A DNA stretch of 62,808 nucleotides from an uncultured Candidatus Saccharibacteria bacterium (GCA_964360855.1 CAYHXV010000003.1:1-62808), one strand, 5' to 3'; shown: positions 39,544-62,808, counted from the stretch's first letter. Made by a program: numbers and translations. Notes: generated from the letters alone by a model not told the origin.

Positions 39544-40293
39544 ATGAAAACGTACGCAATTATTCAGGCTCGTATGGCCTCGACAAGACTCCCGGGGAAA
39601 ATACTCCTCGACATAGCTCCAGGCACGACTGTGCTTGAGTGTATGCTCTCTCGTGTGGCCGCCTGTACAGAGATTGATACTACTATCGTAGCGACAACAA
39701 CGAGCGAGAAGGACCTCGTACTTATCGATTTTTTAGAGAAACACAAGCTGCCCTATTTTGTTGGTGATGAGAACGATGTACTAGACCGTTACTACCAAAC
39801 AGCTCTCGCGTTTGGGGCCAAGAGTGGAGATGTAATCGTACGCATGACATCCGACTGTCCACTCATTGACCCATCGGTTGCCGACACCACCATACGGTTT
39901 TTTAAGGATGGGGACTTTGAGTATGCTTCTAACAATCTGGAACCGTACACCTACGCTGATGGTATGGATACCGAAGTGTTTTCTTTTGACGCACTGGAAC
40001 GTGCGTGGAAAGAATCCACTATCCCCGCCCACCGCGAGCACGTCACCTTCTATATGTGGAAGAATCCTGAACTATTCAGAATAGGGCAATACGTTAACCC
40101 CAAAGAAGGGCAGGTAGCGTACCGACTCACTCTCGACTACCAGGAGGATCTGGATGTCCTTTCTGATGTGTACCAGCACCTGTACCCACAGAATCCACTA
40201 TTTACTATGGAAGATATTTTGGGCTATCTGAACGCACATCCGGAAGTGAAAGCTCTTAATACTGACGTAGAGCGCAACGCGTCTTGGAAATAG
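39544..40293 (+). CDS. SpsF-like cytidylyltransferase (CMP-sugar synthetase family)
   Basis: AIIQARMASTRLPGKIL; GDENDVLDRY; VRMTSDCPLIDP; REHVT; RLTLDYQED. Confidence 0.88.
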   Translation: MKTYAIIQARMASTRLPGKILLDIAPGTTVLECMLSRVAACTEIDTTIVATTTSEKDLVLIDFLEKHKLPYFVGDENDVLDRYYQTALAFGAKSGDVIVRMTSDCPLIDPSVADTTIRFFKDGDFEYASNNLEPYTYADGMDTEVFSFDALERAWKESTIPAHREHVTFYMWKNPELFRIGQYVNPKEGQVAYRLTLDYQEDLDVLSDVYQHLYPQNPLFTMEDILGYLNAHPEVKALNTDVERNASWK

Positions 40294-40336
40294 ACGAGGC
40301 GAAACCTTATTGGATTGATATCTAGTTATACTGTAT

Positions 40337-41653: not shown

Positions 41654-41684
41654 GGTGCTATTCTGAGCTCTACGTACAGCGGAT

Positions 41685-42569: not shown

Positions 42570-42575
42570 TATTTT

Positions 42576-44342
42576 ATGCGTATCCCCGAAACACTTGCAT
42601 TGCTCGCCAAGACCTACCACCGGTACGGCTGGCATATTTTGGCGCTCGCGCTGCTCGGGATGTTCAGTGCCATTCTGGAGGGTATTGGTATCACCGTGGT
42701 GATACCACTTCTTTCATTCTTTGTGGGTGGAAACGCACCGGTTGATTTTATTTCAAAAGCAGTGCAGTCACTCTTTGCATTTGTTGGAGTCCCGTTTACC
42801 TTTAGGTACCTCCTTGGATTTATTCTCGCGCTCTTTCTTGTGCGCGCAGTCACCGTCGTTGCTTTTGGGTATATTCGTGGCAGAATTTCTGCAGACTTTC
42901 TCCATATTGAGAGCAAAGAACTGCTCAAGCGGACACTCCGTGCCTCGTGGCCGTTCTTGCTCAAACAGAAGATTGGCTCACTGCAAAACACGCTCGTGCG
43001 AGACATTCAGTGCTCTACCGGCCTGTTGGGTATCATCGCCCAAATCATCCAGTCGTTCGGAGGATTCTTGATGTACTTGATCATTGCGATAAACATTTCT
43101 CCCTCCATTACGTTCTGGACCATCGGGGGAGGAGCGGTACTTATGTTGTTTGCCCGACCCCTCATTATCAAATCGCGAAAGGTGGGGGAGCAGCTGGTGC
43201 TAGTAGAAAAAGCATACGCCCATTTCTTGTCGGAACATATCATAGGTATGAAGTCAGTGAAGGCCGCTGGTGTTGAGCAGCCAGCACTCCAGAGTGGGAA
43301 CGAAGAGCTGGACTCACAGCGAAAACTTTCCTTACGCCTTGCGTTCATTCGTTCAATTGGCTCGAGCTTCTTTCAGCCGTTCACACTTCTGTTCGTAGTG
43401 GTGTTATTTGCACTTACGTCAAAGTCACCTGACTTCAGCATCGTCTCCTTTATTGCGGCACTATACTTGATTCAGAAAATCTTTACCTACCTTGAATCAG
43501 GACAGAATGCACTCCACAGCTTTAGCGAAATGGTGCCGTACGCCAAGAACCTGGTAAATTTCAAGAAAATTTCTGACGAGTACAAGGAGGAAAAAATCAC
43601 TGGAGAGAAGACGCTTATTTTTGAGAAAGAGCTTGCATTCAACAATGTCTCGTTTTCCTATGAGCCGGATTCAGCCACACTCTCTGATGTGTCATTCGTT
43701 CTCCCGCAAGGAACCACCATGGGACTCATTGGGCCTTCTGGTGCGGGCAAGACCACTGTTGCAGATATTCTCCTGCGGTTGTTTGAACCAACCTCAGGTT
43801 CGGTGACCATCGACAACGAGCCCATAAGGAACATTCGTATAGATGAGTGGCGGCAGTACATAGGGTATGTTTCTCAGGACGTCTTCCTGCTCAACGCAAG
43901 TGTTTCTGAAAACATCAGGTTCTATAGTTCAAACGTTACTGACGCTGATATAGAGGAAGCTGCACGCAAGGCGAATATTTATGACTTTGTTATGTCTCTC
44001 CCCCAGGGATTTAATACTGCCGTAGGGGACCGAGGGGTGCTGCTTTCGGGCGGACAGCGACAGCGCATCGTGCTTGCGCGGGCACTGGCAAAACGGCCCA
44101 AGCTCCTCATTCTGGACGAAGCAACAAGCGCCCTCGATTCGGAGTCGGAGAGACTCATTCAAGAGGCTATACGAGCACTGCACGGGTCTATTACGGTGTT
44201 TGTCATTGCGCACCGTTTGAGCACCATTGAATCAGTAGACACTCTGTTGGTACTAGAAGAGGGCAAACTCACGGAATCGGGCACACCAGTGCAGTTGCGG
44301 AGCACCGCGACCTCCTATTTTGCGAAGTACAGGGGGGCTTGA
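42576..44342 (+). CDS. ABC exporter, fused permease/ATPase (MsbA/PglK/Wzk-like; likely glycan flippase)
   Basis: Six-TM N-terminus; GPSGAGKTT; LSGGQRQR; ILDEATSALD; IAHRLST. Confidence 0.9.
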   Translation: MRIPETLALLAKTYHRYGWHILALALLGMFSAILEGIGITVVIPLLSFFVGGNAPVDFISKAVQSLFAFVGVPFTFRYLLGFILALFLVRAVTVVAFGYIRGRISADFLHIESKELLKRTLRASWPFLLKQKIGSLQNTLVRDIQCSTGLLGIIAQIIQSFGGFLMYLIIAINISPSITFWTIGGGAVLMLFARPLIIKSRKVGEQLVLVEKAYAHFLSEHIIGMKSVKAAGVEQPALQSGNEELDSQRKLSLRLAFIRSIGSSFFQPFTLLFVVVLFALTSKSPDFSIVSFIAALYLIQKIFTYLESGQNALHSFSEMVPYAKNLVNFKKISDEYKEEKITGEKTLIFEKELAFNNVSFSYEPDSATLSDVSFVLPQGTTMGLIGPSGAGKTTVADILLRLFEPTSGSVTIDNEPIRNIRIDEWRQYIGYVSQDVFLLNASVSENIRFYSSNVTDADIEEAARKANIYDFVMSLPQGFNTAVGDRGVLLSGGQRQRIVLARALAKRPKLLILDEATSALDSESERLIQEAIRALHGSITVFVIAHRLSTIESVDTLLVLEEGKLTESGTPVQLRSTATSYFAKYRGA

Positions 44343-44426
44343 AGCGCACCCCAAAGAAAAGATTTGTGGTTGTGGTATAGTGCTCGCGGCGTTTGATCTT
44401 TGAGACGCTAGCAAACAGAAGCAGCA

Positions 44427-46220
44427 ATGCTTCGCACAGACACAAAGGAGCCACTGATGGCTGCGAAACGCTTCGTCCTCGTGGCTCAGTATTCATCCAT
44501 TGAGCCGCTCGGAATCCTTCACCTCTCCGGACTTGTCCGGGATGCAGGGTGGGACTGCAAGGTCGTCCTCATCAAGGGTGACGACTACGCGGAACTCTAC
44601 GACACCGTACAGAATTGGCGGCCCGACATTGTCGGGTTTCAGATCTGGACAGGCAATCACCTGGCCGCGTTTAGGGCCTGCAACACCGTGCGTGGGCTTG
44701 GCGTGCCGCTCGTTATTGGCGGACCGCACGCGACTTACTTCTTCGAGGAGTGCGCAAAGCACGCAGACTGGGTGGTGCAAGCCAGCGGGTTTGGATTCCT
44801 TCAAGACATTCTTGGCGGTGTGCTGCCTCACGGCGTTCACTTCAGTCGTGAAGGGCGATCTGAACCCTTCCCTCTGCCTGACCGCGACCTCCTCTACGAG
44901 ACGTACCCCGGGTATGGTGAAAGCCCTATCAAGAGTATGTTTGCGTCGGTTGGGTGTCCGTACAAGTGCACCTACTGTTACGCGCCGGTGTTCAACCGGA
45001 TGCATAACGGGTTCTTGCTTACGAACCGCCCTGTCGACGATCTCGTGCAGGAAGCGAAAGCCATACTACGACGCTGGCCCCTCTCACTCGTCTATTTCCA
45101 AGACGACGTGTTTGGGTTCAATCCGAAGTGGCTTGGTGAATTCGCGCAAAAATGGAAGACAGAGGTGGGTGTGCCGTTCCACGCGCAGATGCGTCTCGAG
45201 ATGACGCAGCACGCGGGTGGTGACAAGCGACTCGACCTCTTTCGGGAGGCTGGGTGCAGCGGCATAACGCTCGCGATTGAGTCAGGGAATGCGTTCCTGC
45301 GAGACCATGTGCTCTTCCGGCACATGCCGGACGAACTCATTCTCGAAGGATGCCGAAAGATTATGGACCGGGGTATGACGCTTCGGACCGAACAAATACT
45401 TGGCGTGCCGTTCTCGAATCTTGAGACCGAACTGCAGACCCTTGACCTGAACGCGCGTATTAACCCAACGCTGGCGTGGACGAGCATCCTATCTCCCTAC
45501 GGGGGCACGGCAATGGGTACCATCTCTTCGAACTACGGTCTCTATCGTGGCAACAACGACGATCTTCTCGATAACTTTTTCGAGGCGAGCGTCCTGCGGC
45601 ACATCGATGGAGGCCCGCGCGATATCGAGCGGATGGTTGCCATGGTCGGCGCAACACCCAAAGACGAAACACTGCTCGCCTTTCGGACAGAGCAACGATC
45701 GGCTACGGAAGTGTCGGTATTCGATGCAGAGGGAACTCTGCTCGGGTCCGTCACTCACCTGACTCCGAAAGACAACGAACGCTACTGTCGTGATCTCGTG
45801 CGACTGCAGCGACTCTTTAATTTCTTGCCGAAATTTCCTGATGCGGCACTGCTCGGGCGCACACTCGCGCTTATGCCGCAGCAGGAGTGGACGTGGGAGG
45901 GAATTGGGCGGCAGATTGAGCAGCACCTGGTTTCTGCGAACGTGGAGAACCTTTCATCCTGGAAGGACGCCATCGCCGCGGAAATGGGGTATGGCTCAGT
46001 CCTTGAGCTTCCGGGGCCCATTGCTTCGAACCCGTGGCTCTTCTGTGTCGTGCCCGCTGGCGGGCACCTCGCTCGACGTGCGTTAGAGGTGGGTGTATTT
46101 GACCCCCTCCTCTCGACCGAAGAAACGCTCGACCGACTCGGCACCCTCGGGCGCCGGCACCTGTTCGAGTACGGTCTGTACCAGATTCAAGTGGGAAGCA
46201 GTCCCATATGCTCCCGCTAG
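44427..46220 (+). CDS. Cobalamin-binding radical SAM protein (class B-like) with C-terminal extension
   Basis: EPLGILHL; IGGPHAT; GCPYKCTYC (CxxxCxxC); QDD.F; AIESG; start may be ATG 44457; TGgTATAGT promoter element upstream. Confidence 0.85.
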   Translation: MLRTDTKEPLMAAKRFVLVAQYSSIEPLGILHLSGLVRDAGWDCKVVLIKGDDYAELYDTVQNWRPDIVGFQIWTGNHLAAFRACNTVRGLGVPLVIGGPHATYFFEECAKHADWVVQASGFGFLQDILGGVLPHGVHFSREGRSEPFPLPDRDLLYETYPGYGESPIKSMFASVGCPYKCTYCYAPVFNRMHNGFLLTNRPVDDLVQEAKAILRRWPLSLVYFQDDVFGFNPKWLGEFAQKWKTEVGVPFHAQMRLEMTQHAGGDKRLDLFREAGCSGITLAIESGNAFLRDHVLFRHMPDELILEGCRKIMDRGMTLRTEQILGVPFSNLETELQTLDLNARINPTLAWTSILSPYGGTAMGTISSNYGLYRGNNDDLLDNFFEASVLRHIDGGPRDIERMVAMVGATPKDETLLAFRTEQRSATEVSVFDAEGTLLGSVTHLTPKDNERYCRDLVRLQRLFNFLPKFPDAALLGRTLALMPQQEWTWEGIGRQIEQHLVSANVENLSSWKDAIAAEMGYGSVLELPGPIASNPWLFCVVPAGGHLARRALEVGVFDPLLSTEETLDRLGTLGRRHLFEYGLYQIQVGSSPICSR

Positions 46221-46227
46221 ACTCTAG

Positions 46228-46258
46228 AAGGGTCCGTCCACCAGGACGGGCCCTTTTT
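46228..46258 (+). terminator. Intrinsic terminator after the radical SAM gene
   Basis: AAGGGTCCGTCC-ACCA-GGACGGGCCCTT followed by TTT. Confidence 0.8.
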
Positions 46259-46300
46259 GTATGTTCCACAAGTAACGACAGAGGGGTATACTCTCCCCAT

Positions 46301-48442
46301 ATGCATATACAGACCATGGCGCGTTGGACCACGCTCATAGCACTATTTACCATTCCGTTCATCCCACTCTACATTGCGAGTGATATGTACTTCCCCTTTA
46401 TCACCGGAAAAGGGTTTGCATTTAGGATATTGGTAGAAGTGGCACTTGCCGGCTATGTGCTCCTAGCATTGGTTGATGCACGCTACCGGCCGAAGTTTTC
46501 GTGGACGTACCTGTTGTACGGGGCACTTGTGCTATGGATGGTACTTGCGAATTTCCTTGCGGAGAATGTGCATAAAGCGTTCTGGAGTAACTTTGAACGC
46601 ATGGATGGATTTGTCACCATTGTGCACATGTTTGTTTTTTTTGCCGTTCTCGGTTCGGTGCTTACCGTGGACCAATTATGGCGAAAGTGGTGGCTAACCT
46701 TTCTTGCGGCTGCAGGGCTTGTGTGCGCCTATGGACTGTTTCAGCTCGCGGGCATGGCCGAAATCCATCAGGGAGGTGCACGTGTGGATGCTACGTTTGG
46801 TAACGCTGCATATCTTGGTGTGTACCTGCTCTTTGTCATAGCTATTGCGCTCTGGCAGGCCTTCGAAAGCAAGGGTTGGCTGAGGAACATCTTGTTTGCC
46901 TTTGTTTTTGTATCTGCAGCTATCCTTTTTGCAACCGCAACGCGCGGAGCAATTATTGGCCTTGTGGGAGCGACACTTTTGGGTAGCATGCTGTGGGCTT
47001 TTGAGTCGAAAAAGAAGTCTCGCGTACTCGCGGGTGGAGTATTCCTTGGGCTTCTGGTCCTGATAGGGGTATTTTTCATGGCAAAAGACACGGCATTCAT
47101 AAAGAGCGACCCGACTCTCGCACGACTGTCTTCTATCTCCCTGAAGGATGGTACAACGCGCTTTGGAATCTGGAATATTGCACTTGCCGGCGCACAGGAA
47201 CGTCCTGTCTTTGGGTGGGGGCAGGAGGGATTCACCTATGTATTTCAGAAGTATTACCATCCCAGCTTGTTTGGGCAGGAGCCATGGTTCGATCGAGCAC
47301 ACAACACGTATCTTGATTGGCTCATTGCGGGTGGTATTCCAGCACTACTTCTGTTTCTTGGACTTTTGGGAAGTGCAGTGGTAGCACTCTACCGAAAGTC
47401 CGTCTCTCGTCCAGAACGTATTATGCTCGTCTGCGCGCTTGCGGCGTATGGGTTCCAAGCACTCTTTGTTTTCGATAACCTATTTAGCTACCTTGGTCTT
47501 GCGGCACTGCTGGCGGCAGCGCACGCTGCCAGCGGTGTACCAATTAAAAAACTTGCCGCATTACCGGAAGTTAATAGACGGGAAGCAAGTACCGTTGCTG
47601 CTACGGTTGTGGGGGTGGTAGCTATTGGCATACTGTGGGTGGTAAATGTGCCCAGTATAGTACAAGCACAGAAGTTAGTGTACGGCTTGAGTATCGGGCA
47701 GTCTAAGCCACTTGAAGGATACGCCTTACTTACGGAAGCAAATACCAGTGGCGGACTTGCTTCTCAGGAGGTGAGCGAACAACTGGTAAACTTTGCAGTA
47801 AGCATCAAGACGCGTGCGGATATCCCCCTAGAAAAACGAGTAGAGATATTTACCTACGCACTTAATCGTATGGAGAAAGAAGTTGAACGTATACCAACAG
47901 ATGCACGACTTCGCATTGAATATGCTACAGGTCTTCGCGCCGGTCACGATTATCCAAATGCACTAGTACACAGTGCTGCCGCACTGGCGCTCTCCCCAAA
48001 AAAGCAGACGCTTATGATGGAGCGTGGGTTTGAGTTTTGGGAGGCTGGTCAAGCAGAAGAAGCGCGTGACATCTTTGTGCAGATGTATGAGCTTGACCCG
48101 TCATTTACGGGACCTGCGGTATACGCAGCCGCGGGAGAGATTGCTCTGGGGAATGTGAAGGAGGGCGAGTTAATTCTCACGCAGGCATTTGGAACAAATA
48201 TTGTGGACGATGAAGCATTAATTATTGCGTACTACCAAGCGAAACGATATGATCGACTCGTGATGGTGCTTGAACTCCACCTCCAAAAAGACCAGTCGAC
48301 ACAGTCCTACATACGACTCGCGTCTGCTTATGTGCTGGCAGGGCAGTATCAAAAGGCACGAGAGAGTGCTCAAGCGGCGCTACGGCTTCATCCGGAAGAT
48401 TCGAAAGCTATCTCTAGCTTTATTACGAAGCTTCCTCAGTAG
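46301..48442 (+). CDS. O-antigen ligase/PglL-like (Wzy_C) membrane protein with C-terminal TPR-like repeats
   Basis: Start moved past the terminator to ATG 46301 (TATACT 8 nt upstream); ATFGNAAYLG; TATRGA; RFGIW; FGWGQEGF; DRAHNTYLD; helical TPR-like tail. Confidence 0.85.
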   Translation: MHIQTMARWTTLIALFTIPFIPLYIASDMYFPFITGKGFAFRILVEVALAGYVLLALVDARYRPKFSWTYLLYGALVLWMVLANFLAENVHKAFWSNFERMDGFVTIVHMFVFFAVLGSVLTVDQLWRKWWLTFLAAAGLVCAYGLFQLAGMAEIHQGGARVDATFGNAAYLGVYLLFVIAIALWQAFESKGWLRNILFAFVFVSAAILFATATRGAIIGLVGATLLGSMLWAFESKKKSRVLAGGVFLGLLVLIGVFFMAKDTAFIKSDPTLARLSSISLKDGTTRFGIWNIALAGAQERPVFGWGQEGFTYVFQKYYHPSLFGQEPWFDRAHNTYLDWLIAGGIPALLLFLGLLGSAVVALYRKSVSRPERIMLVCALAAYGFQALFVFDNLFSYLGLAALLAAAHAASGVPIKKLAALPEVNRREASTVAATVVGVVAIGILWVVNVPSIVQAQKLVYGLSIGQSKPLEGYALLTEANTSGGLASQEVSEQLVNFAVSIKTRADIPLEKRVEIFTYALNRMEKEVERIPTDARLRIEYATGLRAGHDYPNALVHSAAALALSPKKQTLMMERGFEFWEAGQAEEARDIFVQMYELDPSFTGPAVYAAAGEIALGNVKEGELILTQAFGTNIVDDEALIIAYYQAKRYDRLVMVLELHLQKDQSTQSYIRLASAYVLAGQYQKARESAQAALRLHPEDSKAISSFITKLPQ

Positions 48443-49566: not shown

Positions 49567-50469
49567 ATGGCAACGACCAAACCTATTCGTGAGCGCATAC
49601 AGGCTCTAAAAGAGGAATACGCGCGTATAAAGAAGGGTAAAGACTCACTGCTTACCCTCCTTGACGAAGCTGAGCTCCCCGAGGCAGTCTACAACTCCAA
49701 TGCGATTGAGAACTCCACTCTTACCCTGAAGGAAACAGAACGAATCCTGCTCGAGCAAGAGGTTGACCGTGACGTCTCGGTGCGCGAGGTCTTTGAAGCA
49801 AAGAATCTTGCACGGGTGTCCGAATATATCCGGACGAAGGCATTGGAATCAGAAATTTCAAAAGATACTATGCTTCTCCTTCACCAAATGTTGATTGGGG
49901 GCATTAATGATTCCATTGCGGGGAGGTTTCGTAGAGAGGGAGAGTATGTTCGTATCGGTACTCATGTAGCACCTGCCCCAGAGCATCTAGAACGCATGCT
50001 TGAATCTCTACTCACGGATTACGCAAACGACCACGAAAGCTATGATCTCGATGCCATAGCGCGCTTCCATCTCGAGTTCGAGCACATTCATCCATTTAAT
50101 GATGGTAACGGGCGCATTGGCCGAGTGCTAATTAATTGGCAGCTCCTTCGGCATGGGTTTCCCTCCATCATTATTAGAGACAAGGAGAAGCAGGTGTACT
50201 ACCGGGCATTTGGCGAATACCGCGACTCGCAAAAGAAGCGCTCTAATCAAATGGAGCGGGTGCTCACGCTCACCCTTATGGAGTCTCTGCATAAGAGGCT
50301 TGCCTATCTGCATGGTGGGGAAATCGTGACTCTTGCTGCGTATGCAAAACAGAAGGATGCTTCATTGCCTGCGCTCACCAACGCCGCACGCAGGCAAACC
50401 ATTCCTGCATTTAGAGAACGAGGAGTGTGGAAGATTGAGTCAAAGTTTGTGGACTCTAGAAGTGTTTAG
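49567..50469 (+). CDS. Fic-family protein (class II-type inhibitory motif) with a C-terminal HTH-like domain
   Basis: Canonical HPFNDGNGRIGR; N-terminal SNAIEN matching (S/T)xxxE(G/N); tail TLAAYAKQK...IPAFRERGVWKI. Confidence 0.9.
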   Translation: MATTKPIRERIQALKEEYARIKKGKDSLLTLLDEAELPEAVYNSNAIENSTLTLKETERILLEQEVDRDVSVREVFEAKNLARVSEYIRTKALESEISKDTMLLLHQMLIGGINDSIAGRFRREGEYVRIGTHVAPAPEHLERMLESLLTDYANDHESYDLDAIARFHLEFEHIHPFNDGNGRIGRVLINWQLLRHGFPSIIIRDKEKQVYYRAFGEYRDSQKKRSNQMERVLTLTLMESLHKRLAYLHGGEIVTLAAYAKQKDASLPALTNAARRQTIPAFRERGVWKIESKFVDSRSV

Positions 50470-50586: not shown

Positions 50587-50595
50587 TTATCCACA
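50587..50595 (+). promoter_or_regulatory. Single consensus DnaA box in an AT-rich intergenic region
   Basis: TTATCCACA exact match to the consensus. Confidence 0.4.
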
Positions 50596-50726: not shown

Positions 50727-50897
50727 ATGGCAGCAAAAAAGAGGAAGACCGCCAAGAAGACCGTGAAGAAGGCCGCACCTAAGAAGCGTGCAGCAAAGAA
50801 GACGGTAAAGAAGGCAGTCAAGAAAACCGCTAAGAAAGCTGTAAAGAAGGCCGCAAAGAAGACCACCAAGCGCAAGGCAACGAAGCGCAAGAAGTAG
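50727..50897 (+). CDS. Histone H1-like Lys/Ala-rich protein, 56 aa (not in the ORF track)
   Basis: MAAKKRKTAKKTVKKAAPKKRAAKKTVKKAVKKTAKKAVKKAAKKTTKRKATKRKK; 26 Lys plus 4 Arg, no acidic residues; own terminator. Confidence 0.9.
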   Translation: MAAKKRKTAKKTVKKAAPKKRAAKKTVKKAVKKTAKKAVKKAAKKTTKRKATKRKK

Positions 50898-53705: not shown

Positions 53706-54542
53706 TTATACGAGTGGCCTGAGCAATTCCTGCAATTGCGCCTCAGTGTATTCTTGGACTAAACCCGCACGGCGGTTTGCTTCTAAAAAATGGGACACAC
53801 TGGGCCAGTTAAGTGCAATGTCGATAACCTCGTTGTTCACATTCTTAAGTACACAATTAATTTTTACAGCTGCACCGAATTCTCGCTTGACTCTGTCAAC
53901 ATTCTGCTGGGATTTGAAGTACTGTTCAATAAATCGTTCCTTGAGTATGTTTCTTCCTTCGAGCCTTTCTCGTGCTTGGGTAAATTCCCATGCAACGAGC
54001 GGGTCAATATAGAGGTAGTAAATTTGAACTTCACGATCTGACTGAATTGATTTTCGAACGATATCCCGCATGGTTGCATAGTTTCCAAATGTCCCGTCAT
54101 GCAGAAAAGAGATATCGTGTGCAAAACAATACTCTCGAAGAATACTAAGTCCCTTGGTTGCTGCTTTGTGTACGATGTGCGCGTTTCCCATTACTCCGGT
54201 CACAGGGCTGCTTTTAATGTACTGAGGTAAGAAGGTTCGAATTTCGTCGACATCTATACGAATTATCAGTGCATCAAAGGTTGGGGTATCAATGTCGACA
54301 CCCTTGAGTGCGGTACGCACTCCCGTATTCTGAGAGTCGGGAAGCAAGGGAAGGTAACGCTTAGAAAATTCTGTTTTACCAGCTCCTGGAGAACCAGCCA
54401 TAAAAATAGTAATAAATCCGAGCGGAAGGGGATTCTTGTCACGAATAAACGTATCGACCAGGTCTTGCTTGTGAGACTCTACAAACCTTATCGCCTCAGC
54501 TTGTATGCGTAGTTCCTCTTCACTAAGCTCTAACGGATTCAT
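53706..54542 (-). CDS. Zeta toxin/PezT-like P-loop kinase
   Basis: MAGSPGAGKTE; IDVDEIR; HDGT; ARERLEGRNI; start set at ATG 54542 (TATTAT 6 nt upstream; the longer ORF would overlap obgE). Confidence 0.8.
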   Translation of the reverse strand: MNPLELSEEELRIQAEAIRFVESHKQDLVDTFIRDKNPLPLGFITIFMAGSPGAGKTEFSKRYLPLLPDSQNTGVRTALKGVDIDTPTFDALIIRIDVDEIRTFLPQYIKSSPVTGVMGNAHIVHKAATKGLSILREYCFAHDISFLHDGTFGNYATMRDIVRKSIQSDREVQIYYLYIDPLVAWEFTQARERLEGRNILKERFIEQYFKSQQNVDRVKREFGAAVKINCVLKNVNNEVIDIALNWPSVSHFLEANRRAGLVQEYTEAQLQELLRPLV

Positions 54543-54599
54543 AACACAATAATAACCCGCCACGAGCCAGTCTTTCCTATATATGGTAGGGTGGCCTAT

Positions 54600-55580
54600 A
54601 TGGCATTTATCGATGAGCTCCACATACACGCAACTGCCGGTCATGGCGGGGCGGGAGTCGTACGCTGGCTCCACTTAAAGGGTCGCGACAAGGCAGGGCC
54701 TGCAGGAGGAGACGGCGGTAGAGGAGGGGATGTAATCCTTGAAGGAGTGCGTGATTTAGGTGCTCTTGCGCACTACCGGTACGCCAAGAAGTTTCGTGCG
54801 GAGAACGGAGAGTCTGGAGGGGGGAATGATTGCCATGGAGGAGACGGTGAGCATGTGGTGCTCAAGGTACCGGTGGGTTCAGTCGCTACACTTACTACAA
54901 CGGGAGAGGTATACGAGATCTTACAAGAGGGTCAGCGAGAGGTACTCATGCGAGGAGGTATGGGTGGGTGGGGCAACGCTCACTTCAAGGGAGCGGTAAA
55001 TCAGAACCCAGAGCAGTCCACTCCAGGGAAGCCAGGTGCTTCTGGGGATATTCGAATTAGCCTGAAGTTGATTGCTGACGCAGGTTTTATAGGATTCCCA
55101 AATGCAGGGAAGTCTTCTCTACTCAATTCACTCACGAGATCCAAGTCAAAGGTTGGGGCATATCCATTCACCACACTTGATCCTCACCTGGGAGAATTCT
55201 ACGGGTATGTGCTGGCGGACATTCCGGGGCTCATAGAGGGAGCATCCTCAGGCCGAGGACTAGGTTCTCGTTTCCTCAAGCACATAGAAAGAACAGGTTT
55301 GTTAGTGCATCTCGTCTCGGTTGAACAAGAAAACCCTGTTGCAGCCTATAGGGCCATTAGAGAAGAGCTCGCTGCTTTTGGTCGTGGCCTACCTGAGAAG
55401 CCAGAGATTCTAGTGCTTTCCAAGGTGGATATGGTGAGTCCAGAAGAGGCTGAGAAGCTGAGAAAGGACCTCGAGAAGGCTTCTGGGGTCCCTGTGCTCA
55501 CGCTCTCGGTCATTGATGACGAACTGCTGAAGACGTTCTCAGATACCCTTACCAAGCGTCTCCACACCGAAGCGGCATAG
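54600..55580 (+). CDS. obgE: GTPase Obg/CgtA
   Basis: MAFIDE; GGDGGRGG; GFPNAGKSSL; YPFTTLDP; DIPGLIEGAS.GRGLG..FLKHIER. Confidence 0.96.
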   Translation: MAFIDELHIHATAGHGGAGVVRWLHLKGRDKAGPAGGDGGRGGDVILEGVRDLGALAHYRYAKKFRAENGESGGGNDCHGGDGEHVVLKVPVGSVATLTTTGEVYEILQEGQREVLMRGGMGGWGNAHFKGAVNQNPEQSTPGKPGASGDIRISLKLIADAGFIGFPNAGKSSLLNSLTRSKSKVGAYPFTTLDPHLGEFYGYVLADIPGLIEGASSGRGLGSRFLKHIERTGLLVHLVSVEQENPVAAYRAIREELAAFGRGLPEKPEILVLSKVDMVSPEEAEKLRKDLEKASGVPVLTLSVIDDELLKTFSDTLTKRLHTEAA

Positions 55581-55627: not shown

Positions 55628-57049
55628 ATGAAAGAGTATCGTCCCACTATTGGTCTTGAGGTGCATGCGGAGTTGACTACACGCACCAAGATGTTTTGCG
55701 ACAGTCCAAATGCACCGCATGCGGCACTGCCTAATACAAATATTTGCCCAGTATGTATGGCGCACCCCGGTACGCTCCCGGTGCCAAACAGAGAGGCGGT
55801 ACACCAGGTGCTCAGAGTGGGTACAGCCCTAGGAGGGACGATAGCCGACTACTCTGAGTTTGATCGCAAGAGTTATTTTTACCCGGACATTCCGAAGGGC
55901 TACCAGATTAGTCAGTATGAGCATCCGTTGGTGACGGGGGGTATTTTGAATGGTGTTGCGATTACTCGGGTGCATTTAGAGGAAGATACCGCACGTTCCT
56001 CTCATGACGCGGGTTCAGGAAAAAGTCTCGTTGATTTTAATCGAGCAGGTGTTCCTTTAATGGAATTAGTTACGGAGCCGGTTATTCACGATGCAGAAAC
56101 TGCAGGGAAGTTTGCACGCGAACTCCAGTTACTTTTGCGCACCCTTGGGGCTTCACACGCTAACTTGGAGAAAGGAGAAATGCGCATAGAAGCTAATATT
56201 TCGGTCTCTACCGATGAGTCGTTTGGTACCAAAGTAGAGGTTAAAAATCTCAACTCCTTTCGTTCAGTGGAGCGAGCGATCGCGTTTGAAGTGGCCCGCC
56301 AAAGCAAGCTTATAGAAGAGGGCGGTGTGGTAACGCAAGAGACGCGAGGATGGGACGAGGGGAAACAATGCACCTTCTCGCAGCGCATAAAGGAGGGAAG
56401 TGCAGACTACCGATATTTCCCTGAACCAGATATCCCAAAAATGGTGCTTTCGGAGATTCCAGAATTTACCCACGAAGCACTTAGTGCAAGCTTGCCGGAA
56501 CTTCCGTGGGAGCGACGCGCACGGTACCTCGAGCTTGGGTTGAAGTCTGAAACGAGTGCGTATCTCGCAGACGGTCTTGCGCGCGGTGAATTCTTTGACA
56601 CGCTAGCAGAGCTTTTGCAGGACACTACACTCATCACACTTGCAGCGAATTATCTTGTGTCTGATGTTGCGGGTTGGTATGCCAAACAGAATGTTACTGA
56701 GTACGAAGGTCTGCGACCACAGACGTTCGCAGAACTTATTCTTCTTACCGGAAGTGGCGCACTGTCTTCTCGAGGGACGAAGGACGTACTACTTGCCATT
56801 CTTGAAGGAGCTGCCGGCACTCCAAAGGAGATAGCAACTAGCAAGGGGCTGATGCAGGTAAACGACCCTGAAGTACTTCGGATACTGGTACAGGAGGTGC
56901 TCAAGGAACAGGCGGACGCGGTGACTGAGTACCGGGCTGGTAAGGAGTCTGCACTGCAGTTCTTGGTTGGGGCTAGTATGAAGGCAAGCAAGGGCGCAGG
57001 GAATCCTGCGACCCTCAGGGGCCTTATCTTGGAGGAATTACGCGGGTAG
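55628..57049 (+). CDS. gatB: Asp/Glu-tRNA amidotransferase subunit B
   Basis: IGLEVH; FDRKSYFYPD.PKGYQISQ; RVHLEED; DFNRAGVPLMELVTEP; EVKNLNSF; DYRYFPEPD; ATG 55628 is 7 nt after TGcTAGCAT. Confidence 0.97.
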   Translation: MKEYRPTIGLEVHAELTTRTKMFCDSPNAPHAALPNTNICPVCMAHPGTLPVPNREAVHQVLRVGTALGGTIADYSEFDRKSYFYPDIPKGYQISQYEHPLVTGGILNGVAITRVHLEEDTARSSHDAGSGKSLVDFNRAGVPLMELVTEPVIHDAETAGKFARELQLLLRTLGASHANLEKGEMRIEANISVSTDESFGTKVEVKNLNSFRSVERAIAFEVARQSKLIEEGGVVTQETRGWDEGKQCTFSQRIKEGSADYRYFPEPDIPKMVLSEIPEFTHEALSASLPELPWERRARYLELGLKSETSAYLADGLARGEFFDTLAELLQDTTLITLAANYLVSDVAGWYAKQNVTEYEGLRPQTFAELILLTGSGALSSRGTKDVLLAILEGAAGTPKEIATSKGLMQVNDPEVLRILVQEVLKEQADAVTEYRAGKESALQFLVGASMKASKGAGNPATLRGLILEELRG

Positions 57050-57125
57050 GTGGCTGTTTTCTTTACGACAAAGAAGTACACAGTCAACTATTCCATCCGA
57101 GCCGAGATAGCCTTATACTGCAGGC

Positions 57126-57914
57126 ATGGATGAACTAACTATTGGAGACAAGGTATACATCTCGTCAAAGGGCGCAGCGAAGCTAACGGGGTATGCGAAG
57201 GACTATATTGGCCAGCTCTGCCGAGAGGGTCGTGTTGAGGCTCGTCTCGTTGGGCGGAACTGGTATGTATTGGAAGCTTCAATACGGGAACATCGGTTCG
57301 GGGAGGAACCAGAGCCTATCAAGGATGAGAAAGAGGTCTTGCCAGTACCAGAGACGGCTGCAACTCCATGGGTTGAACCGGAGTACATTGTTGAAACTCC
57401 AAGCTTCATTCCCGTGCTTTCTCTGAAACCAGAGGTCGTTGAGGAAGTTCAGAGTCCGGTGGTGGCAGACATGCAGTCCGCATGGAATGAGTGGTTTAGT
57501 GGAAAGAGCACCGAACCAAAGGTAGAGGCAATTGAAGAGATTCCAGAGGAAGTCATAAAAGAAGAAGAACCGATCGTTTCGGAAGAGATTTTAGAGGCGC
57601 CTACCGTATTTGAAGAAGAAGAGCCAGTAGAGGAGGAGATACAGTTGCACCGAGTACATGAAGATGAGCCGAAGGAGGTACAGGAGGTAGTTGAGGAGGA
57701 ACCACAGCCTATTTTAGAGGCGCCTCAGCAGGCCAAAAAAAGTTCGCGGCTTGTACTCAAGTCCGTGTTCGCCCTAGTTGCAGTGCTGGCAATGGTTATT
57801 GGCGTTATTGGCACAGGAAGTGTTGAGATAATCACCCACAGCAACACTGCGTCGGTACTACAGCCGTATATAGAATACCTCGAAGGAACGAGTGATTATA
57901 ATAAAGGCTTATAA
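57126..57914 (+). CDS. Membrane-anchored HTH (HTH_17/excisionase-like) protein with Glu-rich linker
   Basis: ISSKGAAKLTGYAKDYIGQLCREGRVEARLVGRNWYV; acidic linker; KKSSR followed by TM helix VFALVAVLAMVIGVIG. Confidence 0.8.
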   Translation: MDELTIGDKVYISSKGAAKLTGYAKDYIGQLCREGRVEARLVGRNWYVLEASIREHRFGEEPEPIKDEKEVLPVPETAATPWVEPEYIVETPSFIPVLSLKPEVVEEVQSPVVADMQSAWNEWFSGKSTEPKVEAIEEIPEEVIKEEEPIVSEEILEAPTVFEEEEPVEEEIQLHRVHEDEPKEVQEVVEEEPQPILEAPQQAKKSSRLVLKSVFALVAVLAMVIGVIGTGSVEIITHSNTASVLQPYIEYLEGTSDYNKGL

Positions 57915-58103
57915 TATATATTTCTCGTCTCGTATAAGCGAGAATAGATTAATGCAGACTGTACAGTAATTGGTATCTAGAGCAAATTCGAGCAAACAAA
58001 AGGCTTAATTTGGGTCATTTTCTAAAGTGGAGAGCGAATACCCATGGGTACTCCTTATTTTTTGCTAGTGGATACAGATCACACACCTGATTCTCTTAGT
58101 TGC

Positions 58104-58129
58104 GTTTACTCCTATATATAGGAGTAAAC
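58104..58129. repeat. Perfect 26-bp palindrome
   Basis: GTTTACTCCTATA|TATAGGAGTAAAC. Confidence 0.9.
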
Positions 58130-58466
58130 AGAGGAAATTTGTACATTTTTTATAATTGACCGACCTACAGCCTATTTTATATGTATATCGTCCGTCCGAC
58201 ATAGACTTACTTACTTTCGTTGTCGTTGCGACACTGCGTAGACTATTTTTCAGAATCTGATCTAAGACAGTGCGCTGTTTTTGTATTTGTAAGTGTTACG
58301 TTGCCCTTCAAAATAGTAATTTCATCTTTATTTTTTTGCAGCTCAGGAATTATTTTTTAATATTTTGTAGTGCAAAAAATATCATATTTTATCCCCACTC
58401 TTTATCTACGTGTTTCCGAAATAACAAGCTAGAATGTAGTTAATTCGGACATCCGACCACTGCACC

Positions 58467-61400
58467 TTGAAACCTCTTCTCGACACAGCACTGATTTCTA
58501 CAAAGGAAGCTTCTGAGCTTTCTGGATACAACGCAGACTACTTGTCGCGACTTTGCCGCGAGAAGAAAATTGAGGGCACGCAGGTTGGACGCACGTGGCT
58601 CGTCTCTCGTTCTTCGCTGGAATCGTTTATTGCGCAACAGATTGTACGCAAGAAAGAAATTGCAGAATCTCTATCACGCACTCGTGGTGATGAATATCGA
58701 AATCCTGTTCAAACGCCAGTTCCTGCACCGAAATTCTCTGTTTTTGTTGAGCATCAGGTTTTTCAGGTGTCAAGTCTTCTCGGGTCTTCACGCCGCTTTG
58801 TTCCTTCGGGGACACTAATGGTGCGTCAGGGAGTTGCGGTACTTCTTACTCTTGCGATTCTTGGGGGAAGTGTCTACGCATCAGAGAGTGGCCTAGTTGC
58901 TCGCGTAGGAAATAAAATTCTTGAAGCCACTACTCGCGCACATACGGTCGTGTTTGATACCGTGCGAGATTCAGAAAACTTGGCAGTTGTTATTCCTGAA
59001 AACGTGTACGGAGAAGTTTCGCCGCTGGTTACTCTGGAACAGGCTGCACGTTTTGTTTCGCAACTAGAGACGGTTCACGAGCCGGTACACATAGTTGAGC
59101 GAGCGAATGATCGTGCGCTGCAGTTCGACAGTCAGGCTCCGGAGTCAGTTAGCTTTGCAGTACTGTACGCGAACACCTCGCGTGTACTTGCGAACCCAGG
59201 AGTGTTGCTTGCAACGATTGGTCATGGAGTACTGAACGCCTATCGTGCTATTGGAGAAGTCGCTGTACGTGATGCAGATGTGTTCGGCACACAGTACCTC
59301 GCGTCACTCACCGGCACGGGAGACGCACTATACACGCTTGGAGTGCAGGTGCGTGACGCAGGTGTTGCAACTCCTGCTGTCCTAGCACGCACACACCGCG
59401 CGCTTGGACAGAGCATAGTGAGCGCGAGTGATCAGGTCGTTGCGCTCTACGTGGCTGGCGTCTACACCTGGGTTGAAGAAACCTCCGCTATTCCGCCTGC
59501 GATTGTTGCGCCAACACTTGCTCTTGGAGACACTTTGCAGACTGCACTTGCATACAGTGTTGTGCACACTCCTATTGCGTATGAGCAGGGGGTCTCTACC
59601 TGGGTGGACAGCTCGTATGCAGTGGCCAGCACCCTCACGGAGGGCCAGCTCGCCGTAGGGACCCGTGCGTCCTCAATTGTTGCGGACACTTTTGCGGCTG
59701 AAGACCGCCTAGTGGCGAGCGCCGTGCAGACCATGCTGGCTAGTGGCCCGGTGTTCCAGGAACTTGCCACTGCACTTTCTCCTGTGCAGGTTGTGTCAAA
59801 CCTTGCACATCGTGCCAGTACTGCCCTTACTCTTTCCGCGTCTCCTTTGGTTGCCCTTACAGGATCGTGGATCCCTGCACCACTACGCACGTTCTCTCAA
59901 GGACTTGCGCAGAGTACCCACACACTATTTGCAAAAATCTTTGGTGCACCACAGCTTGCGGTTATACCGGTGCAGGAAGAGGTTTCAGTTCCCGCTACGT
60001 TGCCGGTCGCGGCGAGTACGCCACGTGCCAGCGCGTATCGTGGACCAACGACGATTGTTCAGAACACGTATCAGCCAACTATTCTTCCGGGTATTACGAG
60101 CGAGTACCTTGAACAACGCTTGGCATCTTGGCGCGGAATCACCACCACCAATGTTATGGATGCTGATTCCTGGAATCGTCCGCAGACAACATTCACGGGA
60201 GCTATCACCGACTCCACCTTTACGGATGGTTCGATCTCCGGAAGCACTCTTGCCGTTGCTACCACCACCATCACCGGCTCACTTTCAGTTGTGGGGAATG
60301 CCAGTATCACCGGAACTCTTTCAACCGGTGCACTCACTGTTTCAGGACTCACTTCATACGGACTTATCGAAGCACCGTACTTCACGGCAACTTCAACTAC
60401 GGCTAACTCAACATTCCCGAACCTGCTTGCCACAAACAGCACGACGACGAACGCAACCACCACCAACCTCTTTGCCACAAACGGAACGTTCACTAATTTC
60501 ACAGGTACGTATGCCACCGTTACCAATGCCACCTCAACCAGTCTGTATTCGTCCGTTGCCCGTTTTGTAACGGGCATCATTGATACGCTCACCGCAACAC
60601 TCGCTACAATCACCACGGCGGTAATTGCAAACCTCACGGCAACGAACTCAACCTTTACGTATGCCACCACCACAAACGCAACCACCACCGGAGCGCTTGC
60701 GCTCACGTTCACTACGCCGTCTCGATTGCTCTTTGTTAACGCAAGTGGGAACGCCACTAGTACTAATCTTTCCTCATGGGTTTCCGGTACCACCAACCAG
60801 GTCACCGTAACGGACAACGCAGCCGGTGGGGTAGTACTCTCCCTGCCAAGCCTGCTCTCACTCACGAACGCTTCCTCCACCGCGCTTTCCGCACTCGACT
60901 TTGTTTCGGTAGGGCGCACCGCAACGAGTACCATTCGGGGTGATGGGGGCACCACCAACCTTGCTGGCATACTCTCGGTGGCAAACTACGCGACTGCTTC
61001 CTACTTCATAGGCACCTCCACGAGCCAGGCCTCAGTACTTCCGTACGCCTCCTCCACTGCGCTTACGGTTTCAGGAGCGCTCTACAATACTGCCCTCACG
61101 GCTACCCGCATCCCGTTTGCGTCTACGGGTGGACTTTTCACTGACTCAGCAAATCTAACCTTTGATTCAGCTTCAGGCAGACTCACCACCATCTTTGCCT
61201 CCACCACCGCTCTCAGCGTTTCTGGTTCGAGCTACTTTGCGACTAGTGGCGGCCGCGTGGGAGTTGGCACCACCACCCCTGCAGTTGCCTTTGATGTGTA
61301 CGCAACAGACGCGGTGCGCTTGCCGGTGGGCACAAGTGCACAGCGCCCAGGGGGAGACATTGGATTCGTCCGCTTTAACACCACCACGCATCAGTTTGAA

Positions 61401-62808
61401 GGATATGGAGACAACAGTGTGTGGCAGGGACTTGGTGGAGTGATTGATGCAGATCAGAATACGTACATCACGGCAGACACCAACAACACGAACGAAGATA
61501 CGCTGCGTTTTGTTACCGCCGGAAGCGAGCGTATGACGATTGCTCCGGGAGGGAATGTGGGAGTTGGTTCCACCTCTCCCTATGCAAAGCTTTCAGTTAA
61601 GGGAGCAGGTACCACCACTGGCGTTAACTTCCAGACGACAAACTCAAGCAACAGCCCACTCTTCAGTATCCTCGACAGTGGCGCTATCTCCACCGTGGGT
61701 GCGATTACCTCAACGGCAACAAGTGCCAACACCTTCCCATATGCTTCCTCCACCGCACTCACGGTCTCCGGTACCGGCTACTTCGGTACCGCCTCCACCA
61801 CCGCACTGAAAGTTTCGGGCGCCACCACCCTCCAGTCTCTTACCCCTTCGCGCCTCCTTAGTCTTGATGGTTCCGGTATTGTGTCTGCAGTCTCCTCACT
61901 CACTAGTTGGATTGCAGGAACCGCAAACCAGATCACCGTTGCGGACGACGGAGACGGCAGCATAACCCTCTCGCTTCCGTCTGCACTCTCGTTCACTGCT
62001 GCAACCTCTACCAATTTCTTTGCAGACCGCCTCACCGCAAACACCTTTGCTGCGGGACAAACAGGAAGCACTACCATCTCAAGTACCGGCGCACTTGCCA
62101 CTCCTTCTCTTACGGTGTCTGGGCTCACCAGTGGGCGAGTGCCGTTTGCCTCAACAGGAGGTTTGCTTCAGGATTCTTCAAAGTTAACCTTCGATAGTAC
62201 CAACGGCACGCTCTCGGTACTTTCTTCAGGTGCTCAGCCAACATTGTACAACTCATCAAACGGTGTTGGAGTTATTTTGCGAGGCATAGCAACCTCGGTA
62301 ACCGGTCAGCTTCGAATCATTGCCAACGGAGGGGCGTGGACTGACTCACAAACAACCACCTACTTCCAAATAACTAACTCAACAAATGAGAATGCAACGT
62401 TCATGGGTGGCTCGTATGGTTCCGATACGCAGCTCAATCGCTTGCAGTTCAATGCCTCATCCACCCAATTTACTGACTATGCATATACCGCAACTCCAAT
62501 ACCAGGTGCACTCTTGGGCGCAATAAACAGCACCGCAAGCAAGGTGGTGGCCGTGTTCCGTGGAGCAAGCTCCCAGTCTGCAGACATCTTCCAGGCACAA
62601 AGCAGTACGGGCAGTGTACTTGTAAACATCACCAGTAGTGGAAACGTCGGAGTGGGTACCACCACTCCCGCAGCTCTGTTCTCCGTTGGCGGTAACGTAA
62701 TCATCGGTGCTTCGTCAGCAGGAGGAACAAATGGCACACTCACCGTATCGGGCACCGGCTACTTCGGTACCGCCTCCACCACCGCACTGAAAGTTTCGGG
62801 CGCCACCA
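58467..62808 (+). CDS. Giant (>1447 aa, 3'-partial) surface/fibre-like protein with N-terminal HTH and TM/signal anchor
   Basis: Translated by hand from TTG 58467 with no stop to the window end (in-frame TAG at 58437 upstream); ISTKEASELSGYNADYLSRLCREKKIEGTQVGRTWLV; VAVLLTLAILGGSVYA; Thr/Ser/Gly-rich beta repeats; several G[RN]VG[VI]G[ST]T[ST]P motifs. Confidence 0.88.
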   Translation, partial: MKPLLDTALISTKEASELSGYNADYLSRLCREKKIEGTQVGRTWLVSRSSLESFIAQQIVRKKEIAESLSRTRGDEYRNPVQTPVPAPKFSVFVEHQVFQVSSLLGSSRRFVPSGTLMVRQGVAVLLTLAILGGSVYASESGLVARVGNKILEATTRAHTVVFDTVRDSENLAVVIPENVYGEVSPLVTLEQAARFVSQLETVHEPVHIVERANDRALQFDSQAPESVSFAVLYANTSRVLANPGVLLATIGHGVLNAYRAIGEVAVRDADVFGTQYLASLTGTGDALYTLGVQVRDAGVATPAVLARTHRALGQSIVSASDQVVALYVAGVYTWVEETSAIPPAIVAPTLALGDTLQTALAYSVVHTPIAYEQGVSTWVDSSYAVASTLTEGQLAVGTRASSIVADTFAAEDRLVASAVQTMLASGPVFQELATALSPVQVVSNLAHRASTALTLSASPLVALTGSWIPAPLRTFSQGLAQSTHTLFAKIFGAPQLAVIPVQEEVSVPATLPVAASTPRASAYRGPTTIVQNTYQPTILPGITSEYLEQRLASWRGITTTNVMDADSWNRPQTTFTGAITDSTFTDGSISGSTLAVATTTITGSLSVVGNASITGTLSTGALTVSGLTSYGLIEAPYFTATSTTANSTFPNLLATNSTTTNATTTNLFATNGTFTNFTGTYATVTNATSTSLYSSVARFVTGIIDTLTATLATITTAVIANLTATNSTFTYATTTNATTTGALALTFTTPSRLLFVNASGNATSTNLSSWVSGTTNQVTVTDNAAGGVVLSLPSLLSLTNASSTALSALDFVSVGRTATSTIRGDGGTTNLAGILSVANYATASYFIGTSTSQASVLPYASSTALTVSGALYNTALTATRIPFASTGGLFTDSANLTFDSASGRLTTIFASTTALSVSGSSYFATSGGRVGVGTTTPAVAFDVYATDAVRLPVGTSAQRPGGDIGFVRFNTTTHQFEGYGDNSVWQGLGGVIDADQNTYITADTNNTNEDTLRFVTAGSERMTIAPGGNVGVGSTSPYAKLSVKGAGTTTGVNFQTTNSSNSPLFSILDSGAISTVGAITSTATSANTFPYASSTALTVSGTGYFGTASTTALKVSGATTLQSLTPSRLLSLDGSGIVSAVSSLTSWIAGTANQITVADDGDGSITLSLPSALSFTAATSTNFFADRLTANTFAAGQTGSTTISSTGALATPSLTVSGLTSGRVPFASTGGLLQDSSKLTFDSTNGTLSVLSSGAQPTLYNSSNGVGVILRGIATSVTGQLRIIANGGAWTDSQTTTYFQITNSTNENATFMGGSYGSDTQLNRLQFNASSTQFTDYAYTATPIPGALLGAINSTASKVVAVFRGASSQSADIFQAQSSTGSVLVNITSSGNVGVGTTTPAALFSVGGNVIIGASSAGGTNGTLTVSGTGYFGTASTTALKVSGAT
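61773..62808 (+). repeat. Exact 55-nt direct repeat (61773-61827 = 62754-62808) inside the giant ORF, ending at the window end
   Basis: ACCGGCTACTTCGGTACCGCCTCCACCACCGCACTGAAAGTTTCGGGCGCCACCA occurs twice, 981 bp (327 codons) apart; encodes TGYFGTASTTALKVSGAT. Confidence 0.9.

Follow-up and report, generated by a model that had tools for sequence, protein, structure and literature searches.

A conserved gene pair of the Patescibacteria combines excisionase-type winged helices with a membrane helix and, in one partner, a giant fibre-like outer part

We describe a pair of adjacent genes at the end of a 62,808-nucleotide stretch of DNA (GCA_964360855.1 CAYHXV010000003.1:1-62808; hereafter the window) from an uncultured Candidatus Saccharibacteria bacterium, an ultra-small member of the Patescibacteria. 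Both genes code for proteins with the same N-terminal helix-turn-helix (HTH) domain, of the excisionase/MerR winged-helix type, followed by a linker and a single hydrophobic helix: in the first, a short protein, very little lies beyond this helix, and in the second it is continued by a giant Thr/Ser-rich region resembling a surface fiber. An earlier note, made from the sequence alone, had drawn attention to this architecture as a candidate link between the cell surface and the chromosome, and we find its observations to be correct in every descriptive point. The pair is a conserved two-gene module, accompanied by conserved, operator-like DNA motifs at its promoters. As for its function, we give an even chance to the proposal that the two bind DNA from the membrane, to which they are tethered, and control their own promoters, while also holding their locus at the membrane.

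Both reading frames are present as the earlier note had it, namely a 262-residue open reading frame (ORF) and a longer, hidden one. The latter has no stop between that at 58437-58439 and the last base of the window, coding for at least 1447 residues, and is missing from the ORF listing because the frame runs off the window. Its first start codon, TTG at 58467, follows the stop of the short gene after a 552-bp spacer; its leader spans ~15-25 nt without a Shine-Dalgarno sequence, and TTG is the start in the nearer relatives too. One might object that the gene has been miscalled, with the true start at ATG 58818 and the upstream HTH being an untranslated remnant, and the TTG without a visible Shine-Dalgarno sequence would fit such a view. 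We hold this to be extremely improbable: the initial Met of the homologous giants aligns with the position of TTG 58467, an independent NCBI gene call on a fragment 100% identical to the giant (P0121) begins at the same codon with the N-terminus MKPLLDT, and the in-frame HTH is conserved in the proteins of hundreds of clusters, standing at residue 1 in proteins of up to 7214 aa recovered by an exhaustive search. The HTH thus belongs to the translated giant.

The shared domain of ~50 residues noticed at both N-termini is recovered by BLASTP with 21/46 identities (46%, E 5e-12), and a tblastn search found these two copies, and no third, in the window. The giant exceeds the cut-off of the Pfam HTH_17 model (PF12728; 30.2 bits vs 27), and a precomputed PF12728 match exists for several full-length homologs of the short protein. 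A profile of the giant's N-terminus also matches TraN among PDB sequences (E 2e-4). The AlphaFold2 models, whose input alignments comprised database homologs only, are of high confidence (predicted local distance difference test score, pLDDT, of 95-98 for the two domains) and support the assignment of both N-termini to the excisionase/MerR-type winged helices. In the giant, a strand (9-11) is succeeded by two helices (12-19 and 23-31), a wing (37-47) and a long helix (48-78), and the short protein has a winged helix matching it at 14-58 (pLDDT ~95) with an extra N-terminal hairpin at 3-13. Foldseek searches of the PDB with either model retrieve as top matches double-stranded-DNA binders of the excisionase/MerR type, i.e., TraN of pIP501, Pukovnik Xis, Tn916 Xis, RdfS, BldC, RacA and GlnR/TnrA, with a root-mean-square deviation of 1.5-2.3 A, a target TM-score of 0.55-0.78 (0.70-0.78 for the best matches) and a probability of 0.9-1.0; those of the short protein include Pukovnik Xis, BldC, RdfS and TraN, the E-values being weak as the domain is a small part of a long query. 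In the family alignments the wing (GRxW) and the basic residues in helix 2 show no variation, and in the short family residues 1-59 are nearly invariant throughout. The inner domain is hence a member of the HTH_17/excisionase group, by sequence in the giant and by fold in both, and the modeling bears out what had been proposed for it.

Each protein has one hydrophobic segment, preceded by a linker and by basic residues as had been pointed out. In the short protein, the conserved ADMQSAWxEWF helix is followed by a disordered acidic linker (net charge -21 over aa 126-205), and 33 residues come after the transmembrane (TM) helix, close to the ~30 residues outside that the earlier note had counted; the family further conserves a W..P.Y..E motif and, after the membrane helix, an IGTG motif and a ~35-residue tail. 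In the giant, AlphaFold2 has residues 79-115 disordered and extends the helix that begins at 116 beyond 141 to residue 172; the segment is of moderate hydrophobicity (mean Kyte-Doolittle 1.95) and Ala/Gly-rich, and the signal-peptidase-like SVYA|SE sequence is indeed present at its end. A small-x-small ending with a (G/S)SG after the segment is found in many homologs, albeit not in all. Counts of K+R in the flanks favor a cytoplasmic N-terminus: the N-flank is the richer in 67 of 78 sequences of the short family (the C-flank in 3), and in 30 of 52 giants (the C-flank in 6). Because of this positive-inside bias and the extracellular-type domains that come after the helix in relatives, the N-in/C-out topology is likely for both proteins.

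The outer part of the giant is fiber-like in composition (15% Thr, 12% Ser, 12% Ala and Cys absent), as the earlier note had it, and this is joined by the domains seen in relatives. The outer parts of complete relatives display tail-fiber PHROGs, the Peptidase_S74 intramolecular chaperone, seven LVIVD repeats or Bact_surface_Ig-like domains; one of them (L025) combines a Peptidase_S74 at aa 2103-2159 with the tail-fiber PHROGs 9942 and 18345, and GxVGIGT(T/S)P repeats recur among them. Domain searches detected neither S74 nor tail-fiber repeats in four others (L016, L065, P0205 and P0207), and the outer part in the window, within the first 1447 aa of the protein, has no Pfam or PHROG match. 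The repeat motifs of the giant were counted by regular expression; a self-BLAST at default composition correction returned no internal repeats. Taken together, the outer part looks like a tail-fiber-like fiber or adhesin, which is probably trimeric and possibly glycosylated; from this likeness it may be an attachment organelle. Upstream in the window lies a sugar-modification and export cluster (38495-48442, +) with a cytidylyltransferase, a class-III aminotransferase, a methyltransferase, an ABC exporter, a B12/radical-SAM enzyme and a Wzy_C protein with TPRs, Wzy_C being an O-antigen-ligase-like domain. The Wzy_C-TPR protein, whose synteny with the HTH-TM pair is conserved, could glycosylate the Thr/Ser-rich fiber.

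Our survey of relatives shows the pair, and its adjacency, to be widely conserved, as the reading of the earlier note required. The short protein has 1645 homologs, with ~40% identity over the full length and annotated as hypothetical, and the named members are all Patescibacteria/Paceibacterota. From look-ups of the encoding contigs and a scan of one genome per species we assembled 74 loci, 69 at the species level and 5 others. Nearly all that reach far enough have the gene order Wzy_C/TPR - murB - small gene - secA - obg - gatB - short HTH-TM - spacer - giant HTH-TM, with an AT-rich spacer of about 500 bp (400-1000 bp over the loci); the genes 3' of the giant vary between loci. Giants as called in these loci measure 3817, 4097, 4223 and 4288 aa, and complete ones inside loci 2369, 2462 and 2920 aa; contigs often end inside the giant, as expected of a repetitive gene. 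Word-indexed searches with the giant N-terminus gave fragments only, and full-length giants needed an exhaustive profile search of 1.84 billion cluster representatives, which recovered 8037 proteins at E<=1e-3 and 326 at E<=1e-30, the longest of 7214 aa. Among its top matches, 127 had not been met by the other searches; 55 of these reach 1000 aa or more, and almost all of the 55 display a single hydrophobic segment at residues 102-140, and 14 reach 3000 aa or more. The pair is thus a conserved two-gene module of Paceibacteria-type Patescibacteria, to judge by these sequence comparisons.

Variations on the module are also seen: some genomes have, between the two genes of the pair, a third HTH-TM paralog of medium size (340-590 aa), and in a subgroup of giants a tandem of two HTHs precedes the membrane helix. 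These cases are represented by L026 (11149-12912 and 13594 onwards), L050, L060, L066, L067, P0204, P0165 and P0181, and in L067 a 5' end is duplicated in near-identical form. In the window, two genes interrupt the otherwise conserved block. The first, at 53706-54674 (-) between secA and obg, codes for a Zeta_toxin domain (E 1.8e-26), lies in a lower-GC patch and is the sole clear minus-strand gene seen in this region; it is probably an insertion because it is missing from the same place in related loci. The second, a Fic/DOC-domain gene at 49567-50469 (+) between murB and a small Lys-rich gene, is likewise probably an insertion, since the related loci have no gene there.

Comparison of the loci also uncovered conserved, operator-like DNA elements (Table 1), both within the 57.9-58.47 kb spacer, where the earlier note had advised looking for binding sites, and around the short gene; they are rare elsewhere in the window and the loci. 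This comparison served to identify the promoter elements, and a simple promoter and terminator scan of 56900-58900 returned nothing above chance. The short gene is flanked by TCTCGTCTCG/CGAGACGAGA, and in all three TCTCGTCTCG-type copies are spread over 2.6 kb, in obg, in the promoter of the short gene (inverted) and after its stop codon. The four obg codons concerned are exactly CAT CTC GTC TCG in 48/69 related loci, a uniformity beyond what synonymous choice predicts, suggesting that the DNA or RNA sequence itself is under selection inside this coding region. At the promoter, CGAG(A/G/C)C(G/A)AGA stands between the -10 box and a weak -35 in most related loci, and a TAnnnT hexamer (TATACT/TATAAT) ends exactly 6 nt before the ATG in 47/62 distinct upstream regions; because the -10-like box ends so close to the start, the mRNA of the short gene is probably leaderless. 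The post-stop copy (core TCTCGTCTCG at 57923-57932) takes the form T(A/T)TCTCGTCTCG in relatives, 5-20 nt after the stop, with a partly complementary ACGAGA downstream of it; across 45 distinct loci, ten positions show conservation of 95% or higher, and of the two arms the left is invariant and the right variable.

The giant has its own set of elements, with an upstream consensus (58389-58457) of tATCC(A/C)CA, ~32 nt, TA.aaT, TAgtTAATTCGGatATCCGAC and the start, in which TTCGGATATCCGAC is the conserved motif after the -10 box. In distant lineages, genes with the same type of N-terminus are preceded by TTATCC(A/C)CA, the palindrome ATCTCGGATATCCGAGAT or close variants, TATAAT and the start, ATCTCGGATATCCGAGAT being a perfect 18-bp palindrome just upstream of the -10 box. 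Because ATCTCGGATATCCGAGAT joins the TCTCG found in the motif of the short gene with the TCGGATATCCGA found in that of the giant, the elements of the short gene, the giant and the distant genes look like one family of half-sites. Between the two genes of the pair, at the place equivalent to the palindrome GTTTACTCCTATATATAGGAGTAAAC, most relatives have strong A-run/hairpin/T-run terminators of the two-way type, which is why we consider the short and giant genes to be probably separate transcription units.

Several other explanations of these elements were tried and rejected. A known RNA in the spacer is not supported by Rfam, which gave one tRNA only for the whole window at the gathering score and no match for 57000-58600 at E<=1; ARAGORN likewise detected only a tRNA-Ile, at 892-965. 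An RNA hairpin was considered for the post-stop motif, but its left arm stays constant against a varying right arm, and certain variants can pair on the opposite strand only; in the giant leader, the left half varies without compensation and ATCCGAC is fixed. Both patterns fit DNA or a sequence recognized by a protein better than a hairpin. A replication origin in the AT-rich spacer is unlikely, given a single DnaA-box-like 9-mer and co-directional genes on both sides. The cumulative GC skew climbs to the spacer, which has 35% GC vs ~51% around it (57900-62808), and drops through the giant; as the drop goes together with that gene's C-rich Thr/Ser/Ala codons, we do not take it for a replication landmark. 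The 9-mer TTATCC(A/C)CA, which is identical to the canonical DnaA box, is found almost only on the + strand, upstream of the HTH-TM genes and of the small Lys-rich gene mentioned above. Its second site in the window is at 50587-50595, and both sites are present in most loci (L001-L074). The Lys-rich gene (50727-50897, +) lies in an AT-rich region and codes for a very basic, Lys/Ala-rich protein of 56 aa (MAAKKRKTAKKTVKKAAPKK...) with a histone H1-like composition; it is syntenic between murB and secA across the loci and has no Pfam match.

Table 1. Coordinates of the gene pair, its protein segments and the associated DNA elements in the window
Feature	Position	Strand	Basis or remark
Motif TCTCGTCTCG (10 nt) inside obg, codons H-L-V-S	55310..55319	+	locus comparison
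CGAGCCGAGA, inverted motif copy in the -35/-10 spacer of the short gene	57098..57107	+	locus comparison
TATACT, -10-like box of the short gene	57114..57119	+	ends 6 nt before ATG
Short HTH-TM gene	57126..57914	+	ORF, 262 aa
Short aa 1-59, N-terminal beta-hairpin and HTH_17-like winged helix	57126..57302	+	pLDDT 90-96
Short aa 111-128, conserved helix ADMQSAWxEWF	57456..57509	+	alignments, AlphaFold
Short aa 205-229, single transmembrane helix	57738..57812	+	alignments, AlphaFold
TTTCTCGTCTCGTATAAGCGAGAAT, motif T[A/T]TCTCGTCTCG and inverted CGAGA	57921..57945	+	best-conserved copy; 7 nt after stop codon
GTTTACTCCTATATATAGGAGTAAAC, perfect 26-nt palindrome in the AT-rich spacer	58104..58129	.	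sequence
TTATCCCCA, DnaA-box-like element	58389..58397	+	fixed 67-68 nt upstream of the end of the giant leader motif
TAGAAT, -10-like box of the giant	58430..58435	+	consensus TA.aaT, fixed position in 44 loci
TTAATTCGGACATCCGAC, near-invariant element between giant -10 box and start	58440..58457	+	contains TCGGA-N2-TCCGA palindrome
Giant HTH-TM gene, 5' part	58467..62808	+	1447 codons, continues past window end
Giant aa 9-78, winged helix into long conserved helix	58491..58700	+	pLDDT 97-98
Giant aa 116-141, single hydrophobic helix, end SVYA|SE	58812..58889	+	hydrophobicity, AlphaFold
Giant aa 142 onwards, presumed extracellular fiber	58890..62808	+	Thr/Ser/Ala/Gly-rich, GxVGVG(T/S)T(T/S)P motifs

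Hence, we propose that the module functions in membrane-anchored autoregulation. The two paralogous single-pass proteins, with their N-termini in the cytoplasm, would bind DNA by their inner winged helices while remaining anchored in the membrane, at repeats or palindromes of the (T)CTCG(G) type in and beside their own promoters. The bound proteins would thereby control their own synthesis, placing a very costly surface fiber under autogenous control in the manner of ToxR or CadC; if the finished, membrane-inserted product were the repressor, the number of fibers could be set in a simple way, with the chromosomal region of the pair being held at the membrane as a side effect. We favor DNA binding because the structural matches are double-stranded-DNA binders (of the Xis/BldC/TraN/RacA/GlnR type), because the GRxW wing and the basic helix-2 residues are invariant and because a subgroup has a TraN-like tandem of HTHs; self-control is suggested because related palindromic or repeated motifs sit on the core promoters of just these genes.

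Several observations weigh against this proposal. The short protein scores under the cut-off of HTH_17 (17.3 bits, E 0.006), and the NCBIfam excisionase model TIGR01764 ('excise') matches the giant just under its cut-off (26.9 bits against 28.8) and the short protein not at all. The HTH domains are weakly basic (net +1 over 60 residues), and the near-invariance of the first 59 residues of the short protein would equally fit a conserved protein partner. On the DNA side, simple promoter autoregulation leaves unexplained the motif copies inside obg and after the stop codon, the three copies exhibit no clear pattern of co-variation between loci, and the conserved motifs could be bound by another factor, TTATCC(A/C)CA being equal to the DnaA box. 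Of the interpretation offered in the earlier note, the architecture, the fold, the likely topology and the conservation stand on the models, the charge bias, the tail-fiber domains and the locus survey; the function that it envisaged, with host-contact signaling, nucleoid tethering, release by intramembrane proteolysis and a heterodimer or decoy role of the short paralog, is a possible one that reaches beyond these results.

Signaling from the surface would in fact be a more far-reaching use of the same parts. Here the giant would be a link from surface to gene in one molecule, with the pull or binding of a host on the filament being passed via the single helix to the winged helix; by analogy, the signal might consist in a change of oligomeric state or in a Notch-like proteolytic release. 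The winged helix would occupy the palindrome where its own gene starts as well as the sites surrounding the short paralog, which would set a threshold as competitor or partner. In a variant of this scheme, the nascent HTH, minutes before the chain of 4000 residues is done, would bind its own promoter in cis, and the locus would be pinned to the translocon for one round of synthesis at a time. We regard this link as unlikely, if not greatly so.

The winged helix might alternatively recognize a protein, acting as an adaptor akin to RodZ that joins the fiber and the short paralog to some partner in the cytoplasm (the cytoskeleton, divisome or Sec machinery, for instance) and thus positions or anchors the fiber. 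RodZ consists of an N-terminal cytoplasmic HTH, a linker, a single TM and an outer part, to which the likely layout of the pair corresponds; its HTH binds MreB, showing that such an HTH need not bind DNA. Besides this likeness in layout, the almost invariant residues 1-59 of the short protein across the lineage, the weakly basic HTH domains and the position of the locus next to secA in a conserved block can be cited for such a role. However, the HTH of RodZ is of the XRE type (HTH_25) and its outer domain is DUF4115, neither of which is matched in the two proteins in Pfam or NCBIfam, whereas the fold here is that of Xis, BldC and TraN; moreover, the conserved GRxW wing and basic residues are typical of DNA contact and related palindromes lie in the promoters of exactly these genes, so that we deem an adaptor unlikely. 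Granting DNA binding, the proteins might be structural tethers that hold the nucleoid, or a region of it, at the membrane or the site of the fiber for segregation or polarity, as do RacA/DivIVA and Noc. RacA is among the structural matches, the three motif copies extend over 2.6 kb to the inside of obg and beyond a stop codon, and the DnaA-box-like element is close by, the same element preceding the small Lys-rich histone-like gene. Yet only a handful of sites are seen, all within the locus of the pair, and two overlap core promoter elements, which points to regulation; a tether as the principal role appears rather unlikely to us.

A different kind of explanation takes the HTH, linker and helix to be a cleavable leader or pro-region, with signal peptidase cutting after the helix at SVYA|SE; the fiber would then be released or attached to the wall otherwise, and the remaining HTH-TM stub would be degraded or short-lived, for instance as an export marker. 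The moderately hydrophobic, Ala/Gly-rich segment and the small-x-small and (G/S)SG pattern of many homologs are in keeping with this, and processing does occur in this class of proteins, as the C-terminal S74 of L025 is a self-cleaving chaperone. Nevertheless, a folded, conserved domain of 80 residues and a linker of 40 before the core are unlike a signal peptide, an N-region of 117 aa that is folded is atypical for the Sec pathway, the short paralog retains the module although it has hardly anything to export, some homologs lack the small-x-small pattern and the AlphaFold helix runs past the putative cut site. We find cleavage doubtful, but it is compatible with membrane-anchored autoregulation rather than exclusive of it.

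Set against characterized systems, the pair is most like the membrane-bound one-component regulators in the way it would work. ToxR, TcpP and CadC have a cytoplasmic N-terminal winged helix, one TM and a C-terminal part outside, the layout that is likely here too, and bind promoters from the membrane. However, their winged helix is of the OmpR/PhoB type (Trans_reg_C), of which Pfam finds no match in either protein, and is coupled to a small periplasmic sensor, whereas the HTH_17/excisionase-type domain here is joined to an outer part that is either almost nothing or a fiber of 2400 to >7000 residues; because its DNA-binding domain is of a different type, the pair does not belong to that family. 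Xis, BldC, RdfS, TraN, RacA and GlnR/TnrA share the strand-helix-helix-wing-helix fold, TraN with two HTHs in one chain as in the tandem-HTH subgroup, and RacA tethers the chromosome to the pole; yet all characterized binders of this Xis/MerR-like kind are soluble, and none is known to be fused to a membrane helix or a surface structure. The RsgI-type anti-sigma factors of cellulolytic clostridia offer a further parallel, in that a large extracellular binding module, one TM and a cytoplasmic domain controlling transcription are combined as is proposed here, but the latter is an anti-sigma domain acting on SigI, rather than a DNA-binding one, and the outer module binds carbohydrates and is not a giant fiber. 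On the outside, the PHROGs 9942 and 18345, Peptidase_S74 and GxVGIGT(T/S)P repeats of relatives recall phage tail fibers and trimeric fibers of the endosialidase type, with which the outer part can be placed in at least one relative, and the giant surface proteins of small symbiotic bacteria; tail fibers in turn have neither a membrane anchor nor a cytoplasmic domain. A published survey of giant genes does not mention the HTH, and the literature searched, with most subscription journals outside its reach, holds no description of an HTH-TM-giant-fiber protein or of the gene pair. What is new here is an HTH protein tethered to the membrane whose outer part is without precedent, together with a conserved partner gene and conserved operator-like motifs, for which the candidate binding sites are defined to the base: TCTCGTCTCG, TTCGGA(T/C)ATCCGAC and ATCTCGGATATCCGAGAT.

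The Patescibacteria, which account for a considerable part of bacterial diversity and have hardly been cultured, live attached to other cells, and the ways in which they perceive and grip these hosts are still to be worked out. The locus described here lies in the conserved core of one large lineage, and with a giant gene of ~12 kb in a very small genome it represents a heavy investment: a core, costly, conserved and hitherto undescribed feature of a major uncultured lineage. If the proposed function is true in its modest version, a structural protein acting from the membrane as the repressor of its own gene would amount to a new mode of regulation for a surface structure. If it is true in the wider sense, a fiber joined to a DNA-binding-type domain would provide these bacteria with the shortest possible path from contact with the host to the control of a gene.

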